Positions 5,761-26,163 of a DNA stretch of 64,000 bases are shown here, piece after piece. The DNA is from Bryobacterales bacterium (GTDB taxonomy: Bacteria > Acidobacteriota > Terriglobia > Bryobacterales > UBA6623), in contig OY729428.2 in the NCBI GenBank assembly GCA_963422375.2, positions 3,488,001 through 3,552,000 on the forward strand, in the 5' to 3' direction. The notes under the pieces were generated by a model. That model did not search any database. It was not told where the DNA came from and was given only the letters and a program-made list of their open reading frames with translations. A program made the translations under genes and the position numbers. Position 1 is the first letter of the stretch, and each line of letters opens with the position of its first letter.

Positions 5761-8544
5761 TCAGGGCGCGGCGAATTCGGACAGCCAGTTCAGCACGATG
5801 CGGATGCCCGGGTGCGACGGGCCACTCACCCACTCCGCGATCACGAAGCGGTCGCCGGGCCCGACGTCGTAGGTCGCGAATCGCCGTGGACCACTCAGCC
5901 TCTCGTGCGAGAAGAGCCGGAGCGGGTCTTCCATGCGAAAGCCTTCCTGCGTTCCAACCGGCACGGCGAACAGCGTATCGTCCCGGACGAAGTACAGAGC
6001 CCGGCCGTCGCTCCCCCAGCGGGCGAGCCGCCCGCCCTCGGTCGACACCTGCCAGTGCCGGTCGCCGGCCGGGAACGGCCTGACGTAGATGTTGAACTCC
6101 CCGGACTCGTTGCTCTCGTAGGCGACATACCTGCCGTTCGGCGAAAAGGCCGCGTTATCGACCGTGAAGGGGCCCTCCGGGAGGAAGTCCCCCATTTCCC
6201 AGTCCTCTCCGACCCGCTCCAGGTACGCGATCCGAGGGGACGCCCCCGGGACGACCCGCCTGCCCGGCCCGCTTCCGGCCGAGTCGGACGAGCTCCTGTC
6301 CCCCGAGCGGCGGCGCATCTGCACCAGAATATAGCGGCCGTCCCGCGACCAATCCAGAGGCTTGACCGCGCCGCCCGGCCCGGGGTACAGGGACCGCGCC
6401 GGGCTGTTCTCGTCGACGTCAACGACCGCGACCCCCGGCGTGCCGCGGTGCGAGAACGCGACCTGGCGGCCATCCGGCGACCAGACCGCGCCCGGCTCGA
6501 CCCGGTCGTCGAACGTCCGCCGCCTGATCACTTCGCGGCTCGACTCGTGCAGCCACAGTTCGACGGCACTCCCGCTGACTCCCGCGACGATTACCCGGTC
6601 GCCGGACGGCGACACGCGCGGCCCCAGAATCCGCGGCTGGGGGCGTCCCGCCGCCCCGAGCCGCCCGCCCCGACGGTCAAACCAGGAGAGGCGCATCTGC
6701 AGCGTCTCGGGAGTGTCGATGTACACCAGCGTGCCGTCCCTCGAGACCGACGGTTCCGTCGCGTCCCGAGCGATCACGAACGGCTCGCCCAAGGGCTCCA
6801 GGCCGTCCGGCGAGAACGGGAGCGCCGACAGCGCCGGCGTGAGGGCCGAGGGCTGGTACACAATGTGGCCGGACTCGGAGTAGACCGGGTCCGTGCCCTC
6901 GACCACGCGGACAGCGTCACCCGCCGCTTCGCTCGCCAAGCGGCGGGCCATGACGAAGTCTCCGTCGACGGTCCGCTCGGAATAGAGCAGCACCTGCTCG
7001 CCGTCGCTCGCGCCCACCAAGGCGAGGCTAGTGACGCTCGAACGGCGTCGCTGGGATCCCTCGAAGACGGGCTTGGGAATGCCTCCCAGCGCCGACACCG
7101 ACATCAGGGGCGCGCCCACGCGGCTGAAGACGATGGACTTCCCGTCGGGTGTCCAGGCTGCGCTGACGTGGCCAATGCCGGAATCCTCGACCAGCATCGT
7201 CGCCACCAAGCCCTCCACGGACACCCTGCCGATGCCTTGGCCGGTCACGAAGCCCACGAAACGGCTGTCGGGCGACCAGAAGACCTCCCGCGCCCCATCG
7301 GTCCCGTCGACGCGAAGGAGTTCGAGCCGGTCGAGCGGCTGCAGCCACAGGCTCCCTCCCGATCCGGTGGTGCTGAAGGCAATGAATCGCCCGTTCGGGG
7401 AGATCGCGAGCGACCCTATGCGGCGATCCGACATGCCGGCCTCGATCGGGCGCAGGGTGAAGCGTCGCAGCTGGCCGGGCCGGGCGCCGCCCCCGGTCGG
7501 AACCGCCAGGCCGGCGACGAAGGCGAGACCCACCGCGAACGCGAGACCGAGGCGCACCATCCAGCGGCGGGGCGCCACCGGGCCGCGCGCCGTAGCGGCC
7601 GGCGCCGGCGTCTCGGGCTTGCGGGCCGATGCGGAAAGGCTCCCCCCGGAAGGGACGGAGGGACGGTCCGCTTCCTCGCCTTCCCCGTCGATGAGCTGCA
7701 CGGACGTGCGCCCGCTCGCCGATCGGCGCTGCAGCAACTCGAGGTCGGCCACGAGCTCGCCGGCTTCCCGGTAGCGGTCCGCGGGCGACTTCGCAAGGCA
7801 TTTCTCGATGATCCACTCGAGCTCCATCGGCACCCGCGAGCGGAGCGAGGTGAGCGGGGCCGGAGCCTCGTTCAGGATCGAATACAGCACTGCCTGGTCG
7901 TAATGGCCCCGGAACGGCGGGTCGCCCGCCACCATTTCGTACGTCACCACGCCGAGCGACCACAGGTCGCTGCGGGGGCCGACATCCTCGCCCAGCGACT
8001 GCTCAGGAGACATGTAGGCGACCGTGCCCATGCGAGCGTCCGCCCGGGTCAGCTTGGACGCGCCCGAGATCTTGGCCAGGCCGAAGTCCATCAGCTTCAC
8101 GACGGGCCGCCCCGAGCCGTCCTGGCCGAGCATGATGTTGGACGGCTTGATGTCGCGATGCACGACGCCTGCCGCGTGGGCGGCCGCCAGGCCCTCCGCG
8201 GCCTGCCGGGCGATCTCGTAGGCTAGGTCCAGCGGCAGCGGCCCGCGCTGAATCCGCCGGTCGAGGGACTCGCCCTCCAGGTAGGCCATGGCGAGGAACG
8301 TCTCGCCGTCCTGCTCGTCGATCTCGTACACCGTGCAGATGTTGGGATGGTCGAGCGACGCGGCCGCCTGGGCTTCGCGCAGGAAGCGTTCGGCGTCGAC
8401 CCCAACGCCGGTGACTTCCTTGGAGAGGAATTTCAGCGCGACAGCGCGCTTGAGCCTCGTGTCCTCGGCCTTGTAGACGACTCCCATGCCGCCCTCACCG
8501 AGCGGCTCGAGAATCCGGTAGCGGGAGATTCGCCGGTCTCTCAT
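5761..8544 (-). CDS. Hanks-type Ser/Thr kinase with TM segment and TolB-like (PD40) beta-propeller
   Basis: GEGGMGVVY, VALKFL, HRDIKPSN, DFGLA and YMSPEQ; hydrophobic segment; repeated SPxGR/WSPDG propeller blades. Confidence 0.93.
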   Translation of the reverse strand: MRDRRISRYRILEPLGEGGMGVVYKAEDTRLKRAVALKFLSKEVTGVGVDAERFLREAQAAASLDHPNICTVYEIDEQDGETFLAMAYLEGESLDRRIQRGPLPLDLAYEIARQAAEGLAAAHAAGVVHRDIKPSNIMLGQDGSGRPVVKLMDFGLAKISGASKLTRADARMGTVAYMSPEQSLGEDVGPRSDLWSLGVVTYEMVAGDPPFRGHYDQAVLYSILNEAPAPLTSLRSRVPMELEWIIEKCLAKSPADRYREAGELVADLELLQRRSASGRTSVQLIDGEGEEADRPSVPSGGSLSASARKPETPAPAATARGPVAPRRWMVRLGLAFAVGLAFVAGLAVPTGGGARPGQLRRFTLRPIEAGMSDRRIGSLAISPNGRFIAFSTTGSGGSLWLQPLDRLELLRVDGTDGAREVFWSPDSRFVGFVTGQGIGRVSVEGLVATMLVEDSGIGHVSAAWTPDGKSIVFSRVGAPLMSVSALGGIPKPVFEGSQRRRSSVTSLALVGASDGEQVLLYSERTVDGDFVMARRLASEAAGDAVRVVEGTDPVYSESGHIVYQPSALTPALSALPFSPDGLEPLGEPFVIARDATEPSVSRDGTLVYIDTPETLQMRLSWFDRRGGRLGAAGRPQPRILGPRVSPSGDRVIVAGVSGSAVELWLHESSREVIRRRTFDDRVEPGAVWSPDGRQVAFSHRGTPGVAVVDVDENSPARSLYPGPGGAVKPLDWSRDGRYILVQMRRRSGDRSSSDSAGSGPGRRVVPGASPRIAYLERVGEDWEMGDFLPEGPFTVDNAAFSPNGRYVAYESNESGEFNIYVRPFPAGDRHWQVSTEGGRLARWGSDGRALYFVRDDTLFAVPVGTQEGFRMEDPLRLFSHERLSGPRRFATYDVGPGDRFVIAEWVSGPSHPGIRIVLNWLSEFAAP

Positions 8545-13633: not shown

Positions 13634-15913
13634 CTAGGCCGAGCCCAAATCGAGCCGGTAGGCACTCTTCCCGATCCGCACTACGTCGCCGCTCCCCGCC
13701 CGCAAGGGCCTGTACGGCTCCGCGTCGAGCGCGCCGAGGCGCGTGCCGCAGGTGGAATCCAAGTCCTCGATCCAGATCGCCCCGTTCTCGAGCCGGAGTC
13801 TAAGGTGGCGCCGCGATACATTCAGGTCCCGGAGACTCACGTCGCACCGATTCCTTCCCCGCCCGACCACAAGCCCCTCGGGCGACATCAAGAGACGCGG
13901 GTCCAAGGGAATTCGGCCCGAGCCGTCGAGCGGGACGAGCGCGGCGGCCACCGCGGGAGCGGCCCGCCCGATCGGAACCAAGGCCGGGCCCTGGCGGTTC
14001 ACCGGCGCGGGGACCGGCGGCGGGGAGGCGGACGCCCGGCGCCGCGCCTGCATCGGGGATGAGAGCGCCCAGCCGGCTAGGGCCGCGACCACCAGCAGGG
14101 CGAGCGCCGCGCCGATCCACGCGCTTGCCCTCGAGTCGCCCGGGGGCCTGCCCGGCCCGCCGGGCGAGTCCTCCGGCGGTTCCGCGTGCGGGGGCGCGGG
14201 GCCGGGCACGGTCGGAGGCGCTCCCCCTCCGGCAACAGGGTCGCGGGGCGGCGCCGAGGCTCCCCTGCCGCCACCGCTCCGGGAGACGGTCTCCCCTTCC
14301 TCCGGATCCGATATGCCGTCCGGATCGGGAGCCGCCGGGAGAACCCACGTGCCCGGCACGCCGACCGCGTCCATCGCCTGGTGGGTCGAAACCCATTCCC
14401 GCGAGCCTTCGCCGTGCAAGAGCTCCGCAGCGAGGGCGAAACCGAAGCGAGCGTCGCCGAAGCTGGAGTTCGGCGTCAGGAGGTGAACGGCCGCGCGCCC
14501 GACTATCTCCAGAGCCTTGGCCATGCCAATACCGACGACCGCGGGGCCCGATCGCCGGTCAGGGTGCCGCCCGCCCGCCGCGAGCAAGTAAAGGCCTTGG
14601 TTCATGATCGAAGAGTTGACATGCACGCCGCCGTGGTCCTCGTGCATCCACCGGTAATCGCTGTAGTGGTTGGGCATGCGGCCGACCCGGCGGGGATTCT
14701 GCAAGTCGCGGAGCGGCCCGGCGGGCGACCGCAGGCGCCAGATCTCGTCCGGTATATCCAAGTCCAAGCGCCCTCGCGTCTCCAGCCACGCTCGAAATCC
14801 CGCGCCAAGCACATCGGAGATCGATTCGCCAAGCGCGCCGGGCTCGTCCCTTCCGATGAGACCGCTCCCGCTTTCGACGATCCCGTGGCCGAGCTCGTGG
14901 CCGATGACTTCGGGAAACTTCGAGCCTTCGTCGGTGACCGCCAGCAGCCGCTGGCCGCTGTACCAAACCGCATTGAACTGGTCTCCGTCGCATTGGGGCC
15001 ACGTGTAGGGATTGTGGAACTTCACGCCTACCAGCCCCTGCAAGGTCCCGCCGCGTCCGTCGAAGCTGTCCATTTGCAGCGTCGTGCGGAGATACCCGTG
15101 AAACTCGCCGAACAAGTCGAAGACGGCGTTGACGGGGGCGCGAGACGACCGGCCGGTGGACTCGCTCCTCCCGAGATGCCCCGAGATCGCCCTCATGACC
15201 AGGCGAGTCGAATCGCCAATGTCCAGCGGACGACCTCTTCCGTATCCCCTGCAGGCGTCCTCAAAGTCGTAGATCCGCCGGTCAACCGCCGTGAATTCCA
15301 TGGGAAGGCGCTCGATGACGCGGCCCGAGCGGGCGTCGAGGTAGACCCGCTCGAAACGCGCGCCCGACGGGTTCGCGAACGCACCTTCGACCTCGTAGGC
15401 GAGCACGAGATCGCTGCCCGCCGGCCAGAACACCAGCCTCTGCCCGAGAACGCGTTGCGCGGGCGAGCCGGAGGCCCGGATCGCCGCGGCGAGTCCGAGC
15501 CGCGGCTCGGACCGAGGGAGGCCCAGAAACGGGTCATGCCGGCCGAGCAGGCGCGCCTCGGGGCGGTCGTCCGCCGCAACCAGGCGGGACTCCCGATTGA
15601 TCACCGGCAGGCCGCCGGCGAACTGCCTGAGAGTGAAGACGGTGCCGCGCCCGAGGCGCGCGGGTTCCGGCTCGACCAGCAGGCGGTCGGTCCGCTCCAG
15701 TCCGAGCAGGCGATGCAGCTCCCGGTTCGCCCAGCGCTGCACGGCTGCCGCATCCGCGAGGCCCGGAGGGGCCGGGACAGACAGGACCTCGGCCTCCCGC
15801 GCGACGGCGCCGCCCTCCTGGCCGCGCGCCCGGTCCGCCCCGGCCGCGAAGGCGAGCATCGTGCCCAGCCCGATGCCGGCGACGCACCGGCCCCGCCGAC
15901 TCCGGGAAGCCAT
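13634..15913 (-). CDS. Thermolysin-family (M4) metalloprotease with propeptide, Pro-rich linker, TM helix and C-terminal FHA domain
   Basis: Signal peptide; FTP (LRQFAGGLPV) and PepSY (LAYEV...YLDARSGRVI) propeptide. Catalytic NAVW, HELGH, GALGESISD and GGVHVNSS. TM WIGAALALLVVAALAGWAL; FHA motifs VVGR, VSRRH and DLDSTCGT. ATG lies 4 bp after the PP2C stop. Confidence 0.9.
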   Translation of the reverse strand: MASRSRRGRCVAGIGLGTMLAFAAGADRARGQEGGAVAREAEVLSVPAPPGLADAAAVQRWANRELHRLLGLERTDRLLVEPEPARLGRGTVFTLRQFAGGLPVINRESRLVAADDRPEARLLGRHDPFLGLPRSEPRLGLAAAIRASGSPAQRVLGQRLVFWPAGSDLVLAYEVEGAFANPSGARFERVYLDARSGRVIERLPMEFTAVDRRIYDFEDACRGYGRGRPLDIGDSTRLVMRAISGHLGRSESTGRSSRAPVNAVFDLFGEFHGYLRTTLQMDSFDGRGGTLQGLVGVKFHNPYTWPQCDGDQFNAVWYSGQRLLAVTDEGSKFPEVIGHELGHGIVESGSGLIGRDEPGALGESISDVLGAGFRAWLETRGRLDLDIPDEIWRLRSPAGPLRDLQNPRRVGRMPNHYSDYRWMHEDHGGVHVNSSIMNQGLYLLAAGGRHPDRRSGPAVVGIGMAKALEIVGRAAVHLLTPNSSFGDARFGFALAAELLHGEGSREWVSTHQAMDAVGVPGTWVLPAAPDPDGISDPEEGETVSRSGGGRGASAPPRDPVAGGGAPPTVPGPAPPHAEPPEDSPGGPGRPPGDSRASAWIGAALALLVVAALAGWALSSPMQARRRASASPPPVPAPVNRQGPALVPIGRAAPAVAAALVPLDGSGRIPLDPRLLMSPEGLVVGRGRNRCDVSLRDLNVSRRHLRLRLENGAIWIEDLDSTCGTRLGALDAEPYRPLRAGSGDVVRIGKSAYRLDLGSA

Positions 15914-15917
15914 GCAC

Positions 15918-17468
15918 TCAGCGAACTGCCGGGCGACCGGTCTGGAGCACCAGCGGCTCGCGGAACAGGACCGCACCAGTTGCAGGATCCAGGATCACGC
16001 GCTCGGAGCCACGCCCCGTAGCGACACTACCCGACCAAGCGACGACGTCCGTTCGCCCGTCCATCCGGACGACCACGAGCGAACCCTCGTCGAGCGGATC
16101 GATGTCCTCTCCGCTCGCCCGTTCCGCCAGGGCCACCGTCTCCGGGTAATCCCTCGCGGGCGGGCCGTCAACCTCAATCCGGGACGCAAGATGGCCGTCC
16201 ACGCGAATCACGCGGCTCCCCTCGGTCGTGGCAACCACTTCCGCGGCGAACACCGGCATTCCCTCGTGAGTCTGGCCGAAGCGTGAAACGGTCGTCCCGC
16301 CGATGCGGCCCGGACTGCCCTTCGGCGCGAGCGTGTCCGCGGGGCCGATCCGGCCCGCCTGCCGCAATTCGTCCTCAATCGCGCTCGCGAGGGATTCCCC
16401 GGTCTTCAGCCTCCTGTCCAGACTGACGTGCAGGCTGTCGATCGGCACGGGAGAGCCCGGCCCGCCGCCGGACTCGCTGCGCCCGCCCGATTCCGACGCC
16501 CCCTCGGCGGGGGAGGCGCCGCCCTCCCGACTACCGCCCTCCCTTGCTCCGGCCCCCTCCCGGCCCTCGGCTTGGGCCGCCAGGGAGTAGCTCGGGCCCG
16601 CCCCGCCGGCGAAGAGCGCGGTCGCGCGGCCCGCGGCCGAGGTCGCCTGGCCGCGGGCGTCCCGACCGGCCGGCAGGAGCGCCGCGGCGAGGCCCGCGCC
16701 AACGAGAGCGGCCAGCGAGAGCCAGTACCACGCGACGCGGGGCCCCGGATCGATCACCGCGAGAATCGCCGTGGTGTTGTCATGTCGCTCGAGCTCGGCC
16801 AGCTTGCCCTCGTAGGCCGCGGCGACGGCAGTCCCCGGATCGGCGGATTCGAACAGCGCGACGATCTCGCCGTCGGAAAAAATCTCCCAGAAACCGTCGC
16901 TGCAAATGACGAAGCGAGTGCCGCGCGCAAGGCGCCACCGCTTGAATTCCGCGTCCGGAGGGGCCTCGCCTCCGACGTGGGTCAGCAAGTGCGTCTGGCT
17001 CGGGTGCGTGGCCAGCTCGGCCTCCGAGATCGCGCCGCGCAGCACGTTCAGCTGCGCCATGGAGTGGTCCAGGGTGCGCACGGCGAGGCCGGCCCGCGAA
17101 TACTGCATGACGCGGCTGTCCCCGGCATGGACCGAAACGGCCTCGGAGCCCCGCACCAGCAGGGCGGCGAGCGTGGAGCGCGGATCGAGACCCGCCGCCC
17201 TGCCCGCAGCGTTGACCCGCTCGTGGCACTGGCTCACCAAGGATCGCAGGAAGTCCTCCGACCGCCAGTCGCGTCCGCGCCGGGCCCAGAGATCGGCGGC
17301 GGTGTCCACGACAGTCTGCGCGGCAAGCGAGCCGCCGCGATGACCGCCCAGCCCGTCGGCAACCAGGAACAGGGATCCGTCGCCATCGCCGGACCGCAGA
17401 ACCGTCAACCGATCCTGGTTCTCCTGCCTCTGCCCGACGTGGGTGAAGGCATGGGCGGTTGCGTTCAC
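15918..17468 (-). CDS. PP2C-family Ser/Thr phosphatase fused via TM helix to an M4-type propeptide (FTP/PepSY-like) domain
   Basis: RQENQD, VADGLGG, HAGDSR, CSDGFW and HDNTT; TM WYWLSLAALVGAGLAAALL. C-terminal SRFGQTHEGMPVFAAEVV...V.G (FTP-like) and VILDPATGAVL (PepSY-like); no HExxH. Confidence 0.85.
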   Translation of the reverse strand: MNATAHAFTHVGQRQENQDRLTVLRSGDGDGSLFLVADGLGGHRGGSLAAQTVVDTAADLWARRGRDWRSEDFLRSLVSQCHERVNAAGRAAGLDPRSTLAALLVRGSEAVSVHAGDSRVMQYSRAGLAVRTLDHSMAQLNVLRGAISEAELATHPSQTHLLTHVGGEAPPDAEFKRWRLARGTRFVICSDGFWEIFSDGEIVALFESADPGTAVAAAYEGKLAELERHDNTTAILAVIDPGPRVAWYWLSLAALVGAGLAAALLPAGRDARGQATSAAGRATALFAGGAGPSYSLAAQAEGREGAGAREGGSREGGASPAEGASESGGRSESGGGPGSPVPIDSLHVSLDRRLKTGESLASAIEDELRQAGRIGPADTLAPKGSPGRIGGTTVSRFGQTHEGMPVFAAEVVATTEGSRVIRVDGHLASRIEVDGPPARDYPETVALAERASGEDIDPLDEGSLVVVRMDGRTDVVAWSGSVATGRGSERVILDPATGAVLFREPLVLQTGRPAVR

Positions 17469-17508
17469 CGGCGTTCCCCTCGCATTCTTGCAAACCCGCC
17501 GCGATCCC

Positions 17509-18621
17509 TCAGATCCCGAGAATGGCGAGCAGCACGCTGCCAGTGAAGGATTCCCCGCCCGCGGCGTCGACGAATTGGCCTTTGCCTACCTGCGCAAGCT
17601 GACGCAGGAACAAGTCGGCCTTCCGGCGATCTCGGTTGTTGTCGTTCAGGTTCGCCCTGACTGTGGAGACGAATTGGCCCGGGCTTGATGCGAACAGCTG
17701 GGCTGCCCGAATCGCGGCCGCCTCCCTGTCCGGATACGCCGCGTTGTCCGTGATCGCGATGACGTAGCGGCGCTCGCTCTCGGGTCTCCAGTTGGAGTTG
17801 ATCGCCATCTCCACGGCCGTCGCAACCATCTCGGGTCCGTCCCTGTTGAGTCTGTTCCTAGTTCGGTCCATTTCCGGCCTGAGCGTGGAGACGAACGAGC
17901 GGACCTCGGCAAGACGGGACGTCGGGACAATCCTTCTCTCGTAGATCGGCGGGACCCATGTGCGGTCACCGAACGCGATGACCCCGATGCCTACGGACGG
18001 GGCCAAGCTGTCCAGGAGCTGTGCCAGCGTCCCGATTTCATTCTTCAGGCCCGCGATCTGGTCGGTCATGCTGGAGGTCACGTCGAGGCAGATCACGAGG
18101 TCCATGTCGGGAATCCGGGCTTTTGCGAGAGCGGCCTCCAGTTCGCTCACATTCTTCCGCGATTCCGCGAGGCTGGCCTTGATCTCGTCGACTTCCCGCT
18201 CGAGGGCCCGTTCCCTAGCGAGGTTGCCTGCCTCCTTCTTCCTGCCCGCCTCTGCGGCCTTCCTGCTCGCCTCTGCCGCGGCCAGGACCTCCTGAAGTTC
18301 CGCGATCTTCTGCTGGGCTTGCTCGACTTGGGCGAGAGCTTCGTCCAGGGCTCCGGCCAGCGCATCGCTGTCTTCGGCGTCGCTCCGCACTTGCGCCAGC
18401 ACGGCCTCAAGGCTGCGCGCCCTCTCCGCGACACGGTCGCGGTCCCGGATCGCTTGGGCCAGCTCCGCCTGCACGGCCTCGACCTGGTCGCGCGAGTCAC
18501 CGGTATTCGGGAAGAACGGCAAGGCCATGATCGACAGCAGGATGAACGCGCCCATGCCTGAGGCGAACAGGTCCAGCGCTGAGATGGAGAAGACGTTGAG
18601 TTCTCGCCGACGAAATGTCAT
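17509..18621 (-). CDS. Membrane-anchored coiled-coil + von Willebrand factor A domain protein
   Basis: N-terminal RRR plus hydrophobic segment containing Asp (SALDLFASGMGAFILL); long Ala/Glu-rich coiled coil; MIDAS-like DLVICLDVTSSM and IAITD. Confidence 0.85.
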   Translation of the reverse strand: MTFRRRELNVFSISALDLFASGMGAFILLSIMALPFFPNTGDSRDQVEAVQAELAQAIRDRDRVAERARSLEAVLAQVRSDAEDSDALAGALDEALAQVEQAQQKIAELQEVLAAAEASRKAAEAGRKKEAGNLARERALEREVDEIKASLAESRKNVSELEAALAKARIPDMDLVICLDVTSSMTDQIAGLKNEIGTLAQLLDSLAPSVGIGVIAFGDRTWVPPIYERRIVPTSRLAEVRSFVSTLRPEMDRTRNRLNRDGPEMVATAVEMAINSNWRPESERRYVIAITDNAAYPDREAAAIRAAQLFASSPGQFVSTVRANLNDNNRDRRKADLFLRQLAQVGKGQFVDAAGGESFTGSVLLAILGI

Positions 18622-19284
18622 GGCCCCGTGCCGGGTTGCAACCGCCTCGTCATCTAGCGCCCCCGTCGAAGTCACGCCCGGGAGGGCGCGACGCCAAGCC
18701 GCGACTGCCTGCTCGACCAGCCAAGCGCCGAGCCTTGAGCTCGGTCGAGCAGGCGGGACGCACCGGTTTCCGAGTTTCCGCTTGGCACCATTGTGCGCAC
18801 CAGGACCGGGTCCCGCTGATTCGGCTCGCGGAACCGGCAGACGCCCGCATGGACCCGAAGCCGGAGCGCGTCGCCGCCAGGGGACCGGACCGGAATTCCG
18901 CGAATGGCGAGTCGAGCCCGCCTCGAAGGGGCCCGGCTACTTCGCCGGCAGTGCAAGCAGCGGGTCTCCTCCGCATGGAGGCGGCCGCGCGACGGCTCCG
19001 CCTGAACTGACACAGCGCCATCGCGACCTTTACGCTGCCACGCAGATCTCTGGCTCGGCCCGGCACTCGACCATCCCCCTTCAAGACGCACCGCACTGCG
19101 AGACGGTTTCTCAAGGGACTGCCCTGGCTTGGGACCTCGGACAGTCTGGGCTGGCGGCAGCAAGACGGACTCGAACGACCAACGCCGGCCCGGCGAGGAT
19201 CCAGTCGGCCTCTCGCGAAGCGGCGCTAGAAAGGATGTGTACGCAGAATCGGCGGCCGGTGCGTCTGATGGCACCGAGACCGGA

Positions 19285-21942
19285 ATGTCGCAGACGGGCC
19301 CCGAAGAACGCGGTCATCGCGCCGCCCCGCTCCCAACCGGACCGGATGCTCCGGAATCCGGCGCGGCGGAGGACTCCGGCCCGCCGACAGACGCCTACCG
19401 GCGCGGGCCGTACCTGCCCCCCGGCACGGTACTGAACCGGGCGTACGCCACTCGGTCCGTAGTGGGACAGGGTGGCTTCGGCGTCGTCTACGAAGCCACG
19501 CACTTGCAGCTGGAGCATCCGGTAGCGATCAAGGAGTACTTCCCGGAGGAATTCTGCGTCCGCGTGGGCGATGCCGTCCATGCCAAGAGCACGGTTGCCA
19601 AGGCTTGTTTCGACGACGGCATGAAGCGCTTCCGCGAGGAAGCGAAACGCCTGATCGAACTCAGGGGCTCGCCCAACGTCGTGGCGTATCGAGAGTTCTT
19701 CCTTGAGAACGGCACAGCCTACATCGTCATGGACTTCGAGGACGGCATGCCGCTGTCGGAACTTCTCGCGAGGCGGGAGGCGGCGGGCCGGGGATTCGAG
19801 GAGCGCGACCTAGTCGCGGTCATGGTTCCCGTGCTGAGAGGCCTGCAGAGGCTACACCAAGCCGGCATTTTCCACCGCGATGTCAAGCCCGGGAACATCC
19901 TGATCCGACGCAGAACCGAGCAGGCCGAGGAGGTTCCTGTCCTGATCGATTTCGGCGCGGCGAAGCAAGCGTTCGCCGAGCACTCCAGGACGAACGCACC
20001 GCACACCCCCGGGTACGCGGCCCTCGAGCAGGTCGGGGAAGGGGATCTCGGACCTTGGACAGACGTGTACGCGGCGGGGGCCGTCATGTGGCGAATGGTC
20101 GCTTGCGGGAGCTCCGCAAGCGGCTCCGATGGTCCCGTGCGTGTGGAGAGCCGGGTGATGGCGAGGTTGCGCGGGCGACCCGATCCGATGCCTAGGGCAG
20201 TCGAACTCGGGCGAGGGCGATTCTCTCCGAGACTTCTCGAATTGATTGAACAGTGCTTGGAGTTGAGGGAGTCCGACCGCGTAAAAGATTGCACTAAAGT
20301 CCTGCAAGTGCTCCAATCTATTCACAGAAATAGAGGTCCAGATTCCGGTTTAATAGATCTGAATATTCGTAACGATTGGACTGCTAAATCGGCAGTCTAC
20401 AATATGGATATGGACACCAAGTCAAGCGGAATATGGCGGTCAAAAATAATGGCATTAGCGCTTGTATTTGCAGTGATAGGATGCGTAGAATCAGCGGTTA
20501 TAATCAAGAATTCATGGCACGACTCGACCCGGACTGAGGCAGCCGACTCGACACCTTCCACGGTGGGGAGCGGAAACAAAGCAACGGACCTGCCGACTTC
20601 CTTGCCAGCGAAGTCCCAGGGAAAATCCTCGTCTGCGCCGAGCATCCCAAGCTTTAGAGTCGAAGTCGAACCTTCGGATGCCGCTGTGTTCTTCTCCAAC
20701 GAGGCTCAACCGTACACGGCGGGAATACCTCTGGCCCTAGGGACGTACGAGCTCGATTTCCGAGCCGTCGGGCACCAGCCTCTGAGTACGTCAATCCAGC
20801 ACGACGGGTCGGGCACGGTGCCGAGAGTCGCATTGCAGTCTCTGGAAGTGCCGCCGCTCACGCCAAGGGCTCGGAGCCCCTTCAAGCCGACTGTTCAGCC
20901 TCGCCCCGCAGAGGCCGCGCAGCGGCCGAAGCCCGGACAGGATCCCGAGCAGTCCAGACCGGCTTCCACGGACATACTCGGCACCGGCCCATCCAATGCG
21001 TCGACAGCTCCGAACACGCAGGCGATTCATGCCGGGCCAAGCCCGTCCGCTCTCCCGCCCGAGGTCGATCCGGCACCTGCCGCGCACGTCGTGCCGCCGA
21101 CCGTCGCCGAGCCGGACCTCGGCGAACTGGCGAAGGACGCATGGCAAGAAGCGAGGGATTCAGACAGCCCGGAAGTCCTGGGAGCTTTCATTGACACATT
21201 CGATGGCAGGCGAGGTGCCAGTCTCTGGGTCACACTGGCAAAGGACCGCCTAGCTAAGCTGCCGGCGTCGCCGGTGGCTCCGACGAACGCGCCGGTGCCC
21301 CCGAAGCAGCCGATTCGCATCGGAGGGAACATCGCAAGGGCCCGACTCACGCACCAGATCCGGCCGCGCTATCCTCCGCACGCCCGGCAGGCTCGTGTCG
21401 AAGGCACAGTCAAACTGTCGGCAATCATTGCACGGGACGGGACGGTCCAGAGTCCTCAAGCTACCTCCGGCCACCCGCTCTTGATCCCAGCGGCGTTGGC
21501 CGCCGTCAAGCAGTGGCGCTATCGGCCGACCCTGCTGAACGGAGTGCCCGTCGAGGTTCTCACAAGCATCGAATTGAATTTCACGTTGGGGGACAGGCCT
21601 GATACAACGACCCCGGACAAGAGGCAGTCTCCAAGTCCAAGGCCCGCTCCGAGGCTCGATCAGCCCAAGCGAGACTTCACCAAGCCGCAGCTAGCGGTTC
21701 AGGTCAAACCGTCGTACCCAATGACCGCTCGCCGGGCGCGAGTGGAGGGCACGGTTAGACTCCGCGTGACCATTGCAAAGGACGGAACAATCAAGGAGGC
21801 TAGGGCCATGTCAGGTCATCCTATTCTGGTGCAATCTGCGGTCAATGCAATGAAGAAATGGCGTTACTTTCCGACAATAAAAAACGGAATTTCCGTCGAT
21901 ATTGTCACGAATATAGACGTTAAATTCGAACTGAATCCATGA
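19285..21942 (+). CDS. Hanks-type Ser/Thr kinase with TM, PEGA-like segment and two TonB C-terminal domains
   Basis: GQGGFGVVY, AIKEYFP, HRDVKPGN, IDFG and TPGYAALEQ; TM IMALALVFAVIGC. Two YP..AR.ARVEGTV...DG...SGHP.L...A..A.K.WRY.PT..NG repeats. Start uncertain (ORF is open from 19129). Confidence 0.88.
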   Translation: MSQTGPEERGHRAAPLPTGPDAPESGAAEDSGPPTDAYRRGPYLPPGTVLNRAYATRSVVGQGGFGVVYEATHLQLEHPVAIKEYFPEEFCVRVGDAVHAKSTVAKACFDDGMKRFREEAKRLIELRGSPNVVAYREFFLENGTAYIVMDFEDGMPLSELLARREAAGRGFEERDLVAVMVPVLRGLQRLHQAGIFHRDVKPGNILIRRRTEQAEEVPVLIDFGAAKQAFAEHSRTNAPHTPGYAALEQVGEGDLGPWTDVYAAGAVMWRMVACGSSASGSDGPVRVESRVMARLRGRPDPMPRAVELGRGRFSPRLLELIEQCLELRESDRVKDCTKVLQVLQSIHRNRGPDSGLIDLNIRNDWTAKSAVYNMDMDTKSSGIWRSKIMALALVFAVIGCVESAVIIKNSWHDSTRTEAADSTPSTVGSGNKATDLPTSLPAKSQGKSSSAPSIPSFRVEVEPSDAAVFFSNEAQPYTAGIPLALGTYELDFRAVGHQPLSTSIQHDGSGTVPRVALQSLEVPPLTPRARSPFKPTVQPRPAEAAQRPKPGQDPEQSRPASTDILGTGPSNASTAPNTQAIHAGPSPSALPPEVDPAPAAHVVPPTVAEPDLGELAKDAWQEARDSDSPEVLGAFIDTFDGRRGASLWVTLAKDRLAKLPASPVAPTNAPVPPKQPIRIGGNIARARLTHQIRPRYPPHARQARVEGTVKLSAIIARDGTVQSPQATSGHPLLIPAALAAVKQWRYRPTLLNGVPVEVLTSIELNFTLGDRPDTTTPDKRQSPSPRPAPRLDQPKRDFTKPQLAVQVKPSYPMTARRARVEGTVRLRVTIAKDGTIKEARAMSGHPILVQSAVNAMKKWRYFPTIKNGISVDIVTNIDVKFELNP

Positions 21943-22628: not shown

Positions 22629-24139
22629 GGGAATTATATATCTGAGTGCCGACAACGCCATATCCGACTAGAACTGCTGTGAGCAGGGAGGTGGGTGTCG
22701 AGCTGGGGTCATGCGAGTGCGGCCGCGGCGGGCACAGAGGGGGGGTGGGGGGTGGGATCGTATCTGAATCGAGCCTGCCAGCGGATTGGACGAGGAAGGG
22801 ACTAGAGAGGCCGCCTCGCATGCCCCGGTGAAACCCGGTTGGCGGTGGCAGGGCACCCCTTGCAAGCCGCTTGCAGGCCCTGCGAGGGCCGAAGACAGCG
22901 GATCCCCGGCGCTCGACGGCCTGCATGGACGGTCCGGGCCGGACCGGGGTCGCGCCGGGGCATTCCGGATCCGGTGCGACCCTCGTACCGAGCGTGCAGC
23001 GCGCGCCCGCAGCGGGCTGCCGCGCTCGGCGCGGCGGGCGCCGCTCAGGCCGCGACCGCGGCCTTGCCGGTCAGCTGCCGGTAGGTCAGCGTCCGGCCGA
23101 CCAAGCCCCGCGCCATGCGCCGCATCCGTTCCGCCGTGTCGCAGTCGCGGTCGTTGCGCCGTCCCGCGAACTCCGTGAGGTAGCGGCCGAGATGACGGAC
23201 GCTCATCCGGTGATAGGTTCCGTACAGGCCGCGCTCGAACAGGGACCGGAACGACTCGATGCCGTTCGTATGCGCTGCCCCGCGCACGTACTCGCCGCCG
23301 GAGTGCCTGACGGCTTCGTGCGCGAACTCCGCCATGCCGGCGCAGGCCGCCGCCTCGTCGGAGCGGACCTGCGCGCCCGGCGCGACCCGGCCGCGCACGA
23401 AGCCCTGCAGGTCGCCCTTGGCGGTGGCCGGCAGCGGCCGCGCAGCCACTGCGTTCGTGGCGCGGTCCCGCGCCCCCGCCACGGGCGTCTTGCCGACGGG
23501 CCCGCGCCCGGCGCGGGCCTTCTTCCTCTCGTGCTTGTTGCGTTCCTTGCCGCCGACGCAGGTCTCGTCCACCTCCACCGGGCCGGCGAACAGGCCCTGA
23601 TCCCGCTCCCGGCACGCGCGGATGCGGTGCGCCAGGTGCCAGGCCGACTTCCGGCTGATGCCCGGGTCGCGGTGCAGCTTCATGCTCGAGACGCCCTTGA
23701 TGCCGGTGGTCGGCAGGAACAGGGCGACGGCCCGGGTGCGGTAGCCGAGCTTGGTGTCGGCCATCACGCTGCCGGTGCGCACCGAAAAGCGCTTGCCGCA
23801 GCCGCGGCAACGGTACGGCATCGAAGGGTGGGCCGCGTCGGACTGCACGCTGGAGCCGCGGCAGCGGGGGCACGCGGGACCGTCCGGCCAGCGCATGGAG
23901 GCGAACCACTTTTCCGCGGATTCGTCATCGGGGAACATGGCGATCACTTCGATCAATGTGATGCCTTTACGGAACCACTTTCCGGGACCTGATTTCTTCA
24001 TTTACGGTATCCCCTACTGGAACTATTCTACCAAGAAATACCACAGAATTTCAACGGAAAATCGGAAGAAATATGAAATCTTATAATGGCTTGATAATTT
24101 GCCGACTTGATTCCCTCGGCACTCAGATATATAATTCCC
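22629..24139 (-). mobile_element. IS1595-family insertion sequence
   Basis: Perfect 24-bp IRs at 22629-22652 and 24116-24139; 8-bp direct repeat AATGAATT at 22621-22628 and 24140-24147. Confidence 0.93.
23045..24001 (-). CDS. IS1595-family transposase (open frame but degenerate at conserved residues)
   Basis: RWPDGPACPRC...YRCRGC zinc ribbon, VEVDET, SDEA, HTNGIESF and HL.RYL.EF. Confidence 0.88.
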   Translation of the reverse strand: MKKSGPGKWFRKGITLIEVIAMFPDDESAEKWFASMRWPDGPACPRCRGSSVQSDAAHPSMPYRCRGCGKRFSVRTGSVMADTKLGYRTRAVALFLPTTGIKGVSSMKLHRDPGISRKSAWHLAHRIRACRERDQGLFAGPVEVDETCVGGKERNKHERKKARAGRGPVGKTPVAGARDRATNAVAARPLPATAKGDLQGFVRGRVAPGAQVRSDEAAACAGMAEFAHEAVRHSGGEYVRGAAHTNGIESFRSLFERGLYGTYHRMSVRHLGRYLTEFAGRRNDRDCDTAERMRRMARGLVGRTLTYRQLTGKAAVAA

Positions 24140-24147
24140 AATGAATT

Positions 24148-25180
24148 CCTGATTACCCACAAGACTCAGCCAAGGTTAGGAGACGGTAAGGCATGGGCGG
24201 GGTGCGCACGGAGGCGTGGAGCAGGCGGGGGATCAGCACCGCCAGATCGTAGCGGCGGTTGAAGCGGTAGCAGAACTCGGCGAGGTAGCGCGGCAGGTGC
24301 TTGCCGTCGAGTGCATGGCAGGTTCCCGCCAGGGACTGCTTGACGTTCGCCAGCATCGTGTTGACCCGGACGAAGCGGGAATCCCCGCAGCTCCGCTGCC
24401 CACCTGCGGTGACGGTCGGCACGTGCTCGCAGCCGGCGTCGGCCACGCCCCGCAAGCAGGCCAAGCCGTCGGAATGCACCTCCGTGCCGGGCTGCAGGTG
24501 CCGCCCGGCCCATGCTGCCAGCGTCTTCTTGCGGAAGCCCGCCACGCTGCTCAGGCGCATCCTTGCCGGCTGGCCGGCGGCGCTGACCTGCACGGCGGCC
24601 ACGAACGGCGTCTTGCCCGCCGCGCCGCGCCCGCGCTTGTCGCCGCTCCGCTCCCCGCCCCGGTAGGCGTCGTCCACCTGCACGATGCCGCCCGGCGGCA
24701 CGCGCTCGTCGCGCTCCTTCATCACTTGCAGGAGCTTGTGCTTCATCTTCCAAGCCGTGTTCCGGCTCACGCCCAGCTGCCGCGCCAGTTCCAGCGACGA
24801 AACGCCGTGCTAGCCCTGCGTCAGCAGGTGGAGCGCCAGGAACCAGACGGTCAGCGGCAGCTTGGTGGCGGCCAAGATCGTGCCGGCGACGAGGGAGGTC
24901 CGGCGGTGGCAGGCGTTGCACTGCCAGAGCTTGCGGGAGCGGATGCGGCAGTGCCGGCGGGAGCCGCACTCCGGGCAGCGGAAGCCGTCCGGCCAGCGGG
25001 CGTTGCAGACGGCCTGCTCGCATGGCCCCTCGCTGCCGTAGCGCTGCAGGAACTTGCCCAGGCTGAGTCCCTTCTGGAATTGCACGCGATTGCGTTTCAT
25101 CTGCTATCCCCTTTCCTAGCAGAGATTTCCGACCTCCTTCAGTATAGCATATCCTCGGCTGACGTTCGTTGGTAATCAGG
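24148..25180 (-). mobile_element. IS1595-family element (second subgroup, ISSod11-like)
   Basis: Imperfect 24-bp IRs cctgattacc...tcagcc and ggctga...ggtaatcagg; flanked by AATGAATT at 24140-24147 and 25181-25188. Confidence 0.9.
24153..25100 (-). pseudogene. IS1595-family transposase with in-frame TAG at 24810-24812
   Basis: ORFs 24810..25100 and 24153..24770 share a frame: RWPDGFRCPEC, QVDDAY.GG, KRGRGAAGKTPFV, SDGL and RYLAEFCYRFNRR. Confidence 0.9.
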
Positions 25181-25210
25181 AATGAATTTGATATTTATTC
25201 CGGAGATCTG

Positions 25211-25240
25211 TTGACAGTCAGTGGATATTCTTGATGGAAT
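25211..25240 (+). promoter_or_regulatory. Sigma70-like promoter of the IS1595 transposase
   Basis: TTGACA-18 nt-TGGAAT followed by AGGAGG and a TTG start. The paralog has TTGAAA-18 nt-TAGAAT at the equivalent position. Confidence 0.55.
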
Positions 25241-25263
25241 AGTTCCAATATAGGAGGTCTTCG

Positions 25264-26163
25264 TTGAAGACTTCGAAGCAGAACGGTCCCGGGAAGTGGT
25301 TTCGTAAAGGCATCACCTTGATCGCAGTGATTGCCATGTTCCCCGATGACGAATTCGCGGAAGAGTGGTCCGCCTCTATGCGCTGGCCGGACGGTCCGGC
25401 ATGCCCCCGCTGCCGCGGCTCCAGCGTGCAGTCCGGCGCGGCCCACCCTTCGATGCCGTACCGTTGCCGCGGTTGCGGCAAGCGCTTTTCCGTGCGCACC
25501 GGCAGCGTGATGGCCGACACCAAGCTCGGCTACCGCGTCCGGGCCGTCGCCATGGTCCTGCTGACCGCCGGCCTCAAGGGCGTCTCCGGCATGAAGCTCC
25601 ACCGCGACCCGGGCATCAGCCGGAAGTCGGCCCGGTGGAAGTGGACGAGACCTACGTCGGCGGCAAGGAGCGCGACAAGCACGAGAGCAAGAAGGGCCGG
25701 GCGCGGGCCGGCCGGCAAGACCCCCGTGGCGGGTGCGCGGGACCGCGCCACGAACGAAGTGGCCGCCCGGCCGCTGCCGGGCACGACCGAGGGCGACCTG
25801 CAGGGCTTCGTGCGCAGCCGGGTCGCGCCGGGCGCGCAAGTCCGCTCCGACGAGGCGGCGGCATACGCCGGCATGGCGGAGTTCCCGCGCGAGGGCGTCA
25901 AGCACTCCGGCGGCGAGTACGTGCGGGGGACCGCGCATACGAACGGCATCGAGTCATCTTGGTCCCTGTTCAAGCGCGGCCTCTACGAAACCTATCACCG
26001 GATGAGCGTCCGTCACTTGGGCCGCTACCTCGCGGAGTTCGCGGGACAGCGAAACGCCCCCAACTGCGACACGGCGGAACGGATGCGGCGCAAGGCGCGG
26101 GGCTTGCTCGGCAAGACGCTGACCTACCGGCAACTGGTCGGCAAGGCCGCGGTCGCGGCCTGA
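25264..26163 (+). pseudogene. IS1595-family transposase with internal deletion
   Basis: Paralog of 23045-24001. A deletion of about 61 nt between cggcc microhomologies near 25632 puts VEVDETY out of frame; a second indel near 25695 restores the frame. Confidence 0.85.

Follow-up and report, generated by a model that had tools for sequence, protein, structure and literature searches.

A PP2C-type protein phosphatase encoded on the minus strand of the window (the whole 64,000-nt stretch of Bryobacterales DNA analysed here) carries as its ectodomain a propeptide of the kind found in thermolysin-like M4 proteases. This PP2C-propeptide architecture is real and conserved and, apparently, undescribed. 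From comparative sequence analysis and complex modelling, we favour the reading that the propeptide domain, termed proP, is a membrane-tethered, in-trans propeptide of the protease encoded by the adjacent gene and that the resulting pair bridges the membrane; we put the probability of this explanation as a whole at roughly 60%.

Architecture of the phosphatase gene and its ectodomain

The open reading frame at 17468-15918 (minus strand) specifies a 516-aa protein in which a PP2C domain is followed by one hydrophobic segment and, beyond a linker, by ∼170 C-terminal residues that form a further domain. Pfam, hydropathy and the sequence itself thus bear out the initial annotation, which had described a PP2C domain followed by a transmembrane segment and a G/S/A linker. 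The PP2C/PPM Ser/Thr phosphatase domain covers residues 1-240 (16749..17468, minus strand) and matches Pfam PP2C_2 at residues 10-204 with an E-value of 1.6e-18 (67.4 bits against a cut-off of 24). All of its metal-binding Asp motifs (D19, D38, D117, D191 and D230) are present, and D38, D117, D191 and D230 are kept in at least 90% of alignment A2. The phosphatase did not reach the curated cut-off of the Stp1/IreP equivalog model NF033484 (111.9 versus 230), no match above 0.78 was obtained in the ESM Atlas, where all were generic PP2C clusters, and the NCBI name of one homologue is merely 'protein phosphatase 2C domain-containing protein'. No FHA domain was found in the window phosphatase (P0001), FHA and PP2C occurring in one chain only in the M4 fusions described below.

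The single hydrophobic segment (residues ∼247-266; 16671..16730, minus strand) is, by hydropathy, a signal anchor, although it may instead be a signal-like sequence that can be cleaved. Its best 19-residue Kyte-Doolittle mean, within residues ∼245-268, is 1.89, and values of at least 1.6 were obtained for the segments of 35 of 39 family members. Lys and Arg residues average 3.0 before and 1.1 after the segment across the family; the window copy has one before and three after. Since 35 of the 39 segments are this hydrophobic, with basic residues before and acidic residues after them, we infer that the PP2C domain is cytoplasmic and that proP lies outside. Several homologues have weak, signal-peptide-like segments (Kyte-Doolittle 1.3-1.7, their cleavable look being judged by eye), and cleavage there would uncouple PP2C from proP. 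A low-complexity linker of ∼70 aa, rich in G, S, A and E and variable in length across the family (16452..16670, minus strand), leads to proP (15918..16451, minus strand), which profile and fold comparisons resolve into an FTP domain, a half with the PepSY fold and a short tail that ends at the TGA stop codon (15920-15918). Contigs of three sequencing runs, possibly the window's own source, match the stretch without a differing letter; a further run, made in a second study, yielded contigs that cover the stop junction and likewise show no differences from the window. The stop after proP is real, and no catalytic domain follows in the same chain. The canonical cis arrangement, with the propeptide N-terminal to M4 in one chain, is absent from 15918-17468 and is found only in fused homologues; from its sequence, proP would work like an M4 propeptide, yet it is not a canonical cis propeptide.

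The initial annotation had assigned FTP- and PepSY-like motifs to the last ∼130 aa. The assignment of fold stands, but the domain is longer, as folding begins near residue 340 (nt 16451) and the domain therefore spans ∼170 aa. The FTP part (PF07504; residues 391-426, nt ∼16298-16191) scored at about the cut-off of 21 bits, with 20.7 when the full protein was searched and 21.6 with the ectodomain alone, and an FTP match at E ≤ 0.01 was obtained for 33 of 40 proP members of the family versus 2 of 33 of the proteases' own propeptides (proM). PepSY (PF03413) gave no Pfam match at E ≤ 10 in the window protein, nor in the 40 members of A2; a weak match was obtained with one homologue (P0008, E 0.002). 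A profile built from 34 homologous ectodomains (A1) matches both halves of the propeptides of thermolysin (E 1.9e-11), MCP-02 (2.7e-10) and elastase (1e-5). The PepSY half is covered by profile and fold, on which its assignment rests. The AlphaFold2 model of proP (pLDDT 93.7) has the two-domain fold of solved M4/M36 propeptides, the closest structure being the MCP-02 propeptide (3nqz_A; Foldseek E 8.6e-7, TM 0.64; VIA Z 13.8, rmsd 3.5, 158 residues aligned); 4k90_B has a Z of 11.5. The FTP+PepSY fold proposed at the outset was thus recovered by Foldseek, VIA and profile comparison alike. Residue 170 of proP aligns with MCP-02 residue 204, the last of that autoprocessed propeptide chain. This position is reached by all 50 parsable tails (of 68, duplicates included), 11 of which end there. 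Matches of the single ectodomain sequence to a methyltransferase and a succinate-CoA ligase are considered chance, given the profile and the fold. Searched by word index, the ectodomain retrieved no homologue besides itself.

The neighbouring protease and the modelled complex

The downstream gene begins with an ATG at 15913, 4 nt past the PP2C stop, and encodes a 759-aa protein consisting of a signal peptide, a propeptide, an M4 domain, a Pro-rich linker, a transmembrane segment and an FHA domain. All of its features lie on the minus strand. The probable signal peptide (15821..15913) was recognised by eye, similar N-termini being present in homologues, and is followed by proM (15293..15802). 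That this gene has a signal peptide and propeptide of its own had been noted before and holds, the second propeptide being different from the first: proM and proP share a fold (hhalign probability 99.4) at 22% identity, and proM forms one separate clade with a support of 100. The mature, thermolysin-like domain (14342..15292; E 3e-29 against thermolysin) has the HExxH motif, the third-ligand Glu and the catalytic His, all kept in all 47 family rows. The Pro-rich linker, transmembrane segment and C-terminal cytoplasmic FHA domain occupy 13634..14341, with the transmembrane segment at nt ∼14134-14069 (19-residue Kyte-Doolittle 2.2) and the FHA domain at nt ∼13870-13670 (Pfam E 2e-11); a cytoplasmic FHA domain is present on the protease in 33 of 33 aligned members. 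Three substitutions in the window protein are each unique among these 33: Gly at the position of thermolysin Tyr157 (Tyr in 30), Gly at the position of Asn165 (Asn in 27) and Asp at the conserved Asn of the FHA domain (Asn in 27). With these rare substitutions in protease and FHA domain, the window copy may be attenuated. Near the N-terminal end of the mature domain, two cysteines (C221 and C308 in P0097) are invariant in alignment A3 and probably form a family-specific disulfide.

Modelling of proP together with the mature M4 domain of its neighbour and zinc gave a complex with a score of 0.91, whereas the best of three controls scored 0.34; the mark applied to such scores was reached by 116 of 157 solved pairs and by 2 of 215 mismatched pairs. 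Contacts agreed between runs to at least 86%, and the pLDDT of the partner was 91. In the model the interface comprises the proP tail (residues 165-174) and protease residues H339, E340, H343 and H431, with the proP C-terminus sitting in the active site of the neighbour and touching its catalytic residues. In the autoprocessed MCP-02 complex, the propeptide C-terminus binds zinc. The modelling lends support to the proposed binding of the ectodomain to the neighbour's mature domain and places the tail in the active site. The model may merely reproduce a like complex that has already been solved (3nqy/3nqz), and what it shows is likeness to that solved complex, not binding.

Distribution, history and operon context of the pair

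A HMMER search of 1.84 billion representatives with the ectodomain yielded 93 clusters. Besides the cluster of the window, 35 (at 50% identity) are PP2C proteins that end after the propeptide and three are PP2C-propeptide-M4 fusions. A set of 46 loci (the window, L019-L051 and L096-L107, some of them near-duplicates) was collected with the protease as the query and was therefore not selected for proP. The phosphatase-type propeptide is found in 43 of them. Both genes and both propeptides are present in 32 loci; in four (L028, L036, L037 and L099) PP2C-proP is followed by a signal peptide-M4 protein without a propeptide; in two (L050 and L051) a stand-alone TM-proP precedes a propeptide-less M4; four are PP2C-proP-M4-FHA fusions and one is a proP-M4-FHA fusion. 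The three loci without proP comprise two that retain proM and one that is fragmented. All six propeptide-less proteases of known context have proP encoded directly upstream, and HExxH, the Glu ligand and the catalytic His are retained in nine of nine propeptide-less M4 sequences; one propeptide-less protease cluster has eight members. The seven full fusions (P0023, P0045, P0129, L032, L034, L044 and L100) all bear proP-type propeptides. The initial annotation had the ectodomain acting in trans on the neighbouring protease, and this is supported by the propeptide-less proteases immediately behind the proP gene, together with the fold and the predicted complex.

The associations are not without exceptions. 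PP2C is missing from L031 and P0021, which are proP-M4 proteins, and L038 is a PP2C protein without proP; proP is missing beside the protease in L024 and beside the second copy in L023. In L036 there is a premature stop in proP though its protease has no propeptide. Decay is frequent in the genomes of L020, L033, L036 and L043 (L020:8831-9973, L033:8449-9510, L036:8335-9756 and L043): transposases disrupt the pair or the protease in two of these genomes, the proP stop affects one and a protease copy is in fragments in one. At L050:9162-11641 and L051:1536-4039, the membrane-anchored propeptide gene directly before the propeptide-less M4-TM-FHA gene amounts to a naturally split zymogen, and L050 also encodes a PP2C-TM protein with a different, short ectodomain (16492-17907).

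The closest loci are from Bryobacterales and the others from marine Gammaproteobacteria, among them the cultured Alteromonas lipotrueae MD_652, Halioxenophilus sp. WMMB6 and Pseudomaricurvus sp. HS19. The spread is patchy: matches were found in 8 of 30 genomes of the same genus (single-sequence search), in 11 of 76 of the family at 198 bits or more, and in 1 of 400 sampled genomes of the phylum. The weaker phylum matches are mostly ordinary pre-pro-M4 genes, M4 lying in the same frame in 24 of 28 examined and PP2C in none of the 28. At one ordinary M4 locus (L192:408-2136), propeptide and catalytic domain lie in different frames, by a frameshift or a split gene. The protease is encoded within 1.5 kb of the phosphatase in 10 of 11 relatives, a transposase lying between them in the eleventh, and in the control a PP2C gene was nearby in 2 of 112 ordinary M4 loci, counting the PP2C, FHA and vWA matches listed, with many flanks being short.

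On the M4 tree, the propeptide-less state requires at least four changes and fusion at least three (starred branches); near-duplicate loci and the broken L043 were omitted from one of the analyses behind the architectures, and the split L033 protease from the change-count tree. Single origins were rejected by AU tests (p 3e-9 for the propeptide-less state and 1e-3 for fusion) on a tree pruned of 13 of 50 rows (near-duplicates plus a single long outgroup). The change counts alone give no direction, but as proM is spread over all branches, the tree is read most simply if proM was lost repeatedly while proP was kept. The dN/dS of proP was 0.10-0.36 in 11 of 12 pairs, the twelfth (L022/L033) being uncomputed for both PP2C and proP; dS was saturated in two pairs. 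We conclude that purifying selection acts on proP also at loci that have proM. In all seven pairs computable for both, which share loci, dN/dS was lower for proP than for proM. Stronger conservation of proP than of proM throughout the family was not supported, since in 23 two-propeptide loci mean identities were 29.0% and 29.4%, respectively, and proP was higher in 132 of 253 pairs; greater constraint on proP is thus pointed to only by dN/dS in close pairs, with family-wide identity against it. proP is conserved down to 15% identity and in two phyla, and its identity tracks that of M4 (Spearman 0.67, kin not being independent).

Upstream in the operon, a gene at 17509..18675 (minus strand), conserved beside the pair, encodes an N-terminal hydrophobic motif, a coiled coil and a vWA domain (Pfam VWA_2). 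Divergent from it is a Ser/Thr kinase gene with two TonB_C domains (19129..21942, plus strand; Pfam), probably the cognate kinase; related kinases occur within the examined flank in 38 of the 46 loci. Across Bryobacterales and marine Gammaproteobacteria, the PP2C-proP/protease pair recurs in kinase/FHA/vWA/MotA-like operons. The larger cluster in relatives includes a small FHA protein, a MotA/ExbB-like gene, an FHA protein, a second PP2C, a trypsin-like TM-FHA protein, vWA and several kinases, and a conserved FHA, MotA-ExbB-like, FHA, PP2C, trypsin-TM-FHA, vWA and kinase cluster is seen at L041:2395-8027 and many other family loci. The same operon system contains a second protease-TM-FHA architecture. 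The hydrophobic N-terminus of the vWA protein may partner the MotA-like protein. Relatives, L020 among them, have the cluster in one contiguous block; in the present genome its other half lies ∼710 kb from the window (G000:C2:2789343-2793674; L176:4343-8674) and encodes the small FHA protein, the MotA/ExbB-like protein, the FHA protein, the second PP2C and a trypsin-like coiled-coil TM-FHA protein. A TM-FHA open reading frame at L176:11088-12086 is close to the C-terminus of the M4 protein, has no protease domain and adjoins a second kinase with TonB_C-like ends; it may be what is left of a second M4 copy. Alteromonas-type loci (L029:12369-14822, L047, L098, L101-L104 and L106) have a double-FHA protein behind the M4 gene, given by Pfam as FHA-FHA-ABC transporter in L029, and the M4 proteins at L046:9734-12649 and L048:9779-12472 contain two FHA domains. 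Elsewhere in the window, insertion-sequence genes lie to the right of the kinase (23045-26163, with an IS1595-family transposase at 23045-24001 and a similar one at 25264-26163), and an unrelated Ser/Thr kinase with a PD40 beta-propeller is encoded at 5761-8544.

Proposed mechanism, alternatives and known systems

Taken together, the synteny, fold and modelling suggest that proP very probably binds and inhibits the neighbouring protease in trans. The PP2C gene would contribute an additional M4 propeptide, tethered to the membrane, which would bind the neighbour's mature domain in the periplasm and act both as a folding chaperone and as an active-site inhibitor. Where proM has been lost, proP would be the sole chaperone; where proM is present, it would be a replacement inhibitor, probably taking the same site once the protease has cut proM off. 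Because the protease is anchored by a C-terminal transmembrane segment with a cytoplasmic FHA domain, such a complex would bridge the inner membrane, with the propeptide on the protease outside and the phosphatase by the FHA domain inside. That PP2C is held beside the FHA domain, as the initial annotation also suggested, and so coupled to phosphorylation has, in our estimate, a little less than an even chance; the loci that part proP from PP2C (L050, L051, L031 and L038) and the signal-peptide-like segments of several homologues speak against it. If so, the clamp would keep the protease off and hold PP2C near phosphothreonine proteins caught by the FHA domain, probably the kinases of the operon. 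Displacement or degradation of proP (by a substrate, the operon's trypsin-like TM-FHA protein or envelope stress) would turn the protease on and free the phosphatase from the FHA domain. The single-chain fusions would yield the same two-chain complex upon self-cleavage. We tentatively propose a proteolysis-gated transmembrane phosphorylation switch, in which a periplasmic clasp links the cytoplasmic phosphatase to a cytoplasmic reader of phosphothreonine, so that its opening would at once set the protease free and increase signalling by the kinases. With equal caution, this switch could belong to an operon of marine bacteria, of MotA/ExbB-vWA-trypsin-kinase make-up, that surveys the envelope.

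A simpler possibility is that proP is an in-trans chaperone and inhibitor only, its fusion to PP2C being incidental, with the hydrophobic segment serving as an export signal and the two domains working independently. The stand-alone TM-proP genes beside propeptide-less proteases (L050 and L051) fit such an arrangement, as do the proteins in which either half occurs without the other (L031, P0021 and L038) and the signal-peptide-like segments of several homologues. However, PP2C and proP remain joined in 35 further clusters (50% identity) from two phyla, 35 of 39 segments look like anchors, being strongly hydrophobic and having the charge pattern of an N-in orientation, and a purely extracellular role would not need the FHA domain that is cytoplasmic in 33 of 33 proteases. 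We regard this alternative as rather unlikely, though far from remote.

It is more doubtful still that proP is a receptor for foreign proteases, a bait for thermolysin- or vibriolysin-type enzymes of competitors or hosts that signals via PP2C, with the neighbour as a secondary partner. Cross-inhibition does occur between M4 propeptides, and proP is nearer to ordinary M4 propeptides than proM is, both in FTP matches (33/40 versus 2/33) and in profile scores, the proP profile giving the best score for each of 10 outgroup propeptides (one of which proved to be a family member). Against this stand the strict synteny with the family's own protease (10/11 within 1.5 kb), the tracking of M4 identity by proP identity (Spearman 0.67, among kin that are not independent) and the fact that proP is the only propeptide in the fusions and the propeptide-less loci. 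It is very improbable that proP is a leftover without function from a PP2C-M4 fusion that was truncated. Full fusions do exist, but they are scattered and nested among two-gene loci, have several origins and are all of the proP type, while the two-gene form is widespread. Considering also the intact fold and the conservation to 15% identity across two phyla, and since proP is under purifying selection, it is no truncation relic; on these sequence comparisons the recent truncation of a PP2C-M4 fusion, raised in the initial annotation as an alternative origin, is excluded.

A signalling phosphatase here retains an M4 propeptide as its ectodomain which, in several lineages, is the sole propeptide of the protease and comes from a separate gene. 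If our reading is true, thermolysin-type proteases that depend on another gene for their sole propeptide would exist in nature. The arrangement offers a testable in-trans folding system and a candidate route linking periplasmic proteolysis to Ser/Thr phosphorylation. Clamping of an adjacent membrane-anchored protease could in this way tie envelope proteolysis to intracellular protein phosphorylation in some marine bacteria, and because cultured hosts carry the locus, direct testing is possible.

M4 propeptides are usually cis chaperone-inhibitors that are discarded after export. proP differs from them in being encoded in a separate gene, at the C-terminus, behind a phosphatase and a membrane segment, and its partner differs from ordinary M4 proteases in being membrane-anchored, in having a cytoplasmic FHA domain and, usually, in having a second propeptide of its own. 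With propeptides of the MCP-02 type (3nqy/3nqz), proP shares fold, length, chain end point and modelled binding over the active site. In the mycobacterial phosphatase PstP, a membrane-anchored PP2C, a cytoplasmic PP2C domain is joined through one transmembrane segment to an extracellular domain; the ectodomain here is instead a protease propeptide. M4 propeptides are described as chaperone-inhibitors that stay bound even after self-cleavage (PMC13556211, section 11; PMC5078317). PMC13556211 also covers the YpeB-SleB pair of Bacillus spores, in which a PepSY protein with a gene of its own has been proposed to act in trans as both chaperone and inhibitor of the hydrolase next to it. YpeB ranks third to fourth among the fold matches of the proP model (Foldseek, VIA). 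The target of YpeB is a peptidoglycan hydrolase, with no phosphatase or FHA domain in the passages of PMC13556211 on the pair, whereas proP is a full FTP+PepSY M4 propeptide.

In the searchable full-text literature, with subscription journals mostly outside it, the PP2C-propeptide fusion and its operon are undescribed, though the supplementary domain tables of PMC7159879 and PMC1262709 could list it. A kinase-PP2C-vWA triad is mentioned in PMC7159879, and the KKP module of PMC11341870 is a different module. The nearest operon is that of Deinococcus (DRA0331-0334), a vWA-kinase-FHA-PP2C operon in which, according to the preprint (bioRxiv 10.64898/2026.01.23.701218), FHA docking steers the phosphatase. 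The window family likewise co-locates vWA, Ser/Thr kinase, FHA and PP2C genes and, compared with that account, adds MotA/ExbB-like and trypsin-TM-FHA genes. The Deinococcus phosphatase, as described there, carries its FHA domain in cis; in the window family, PP2C and FHA reside on two membrane proteins that would be joined through a periplasmic propeptide-protease contact. The parts are known; their arrangement is apparently new.
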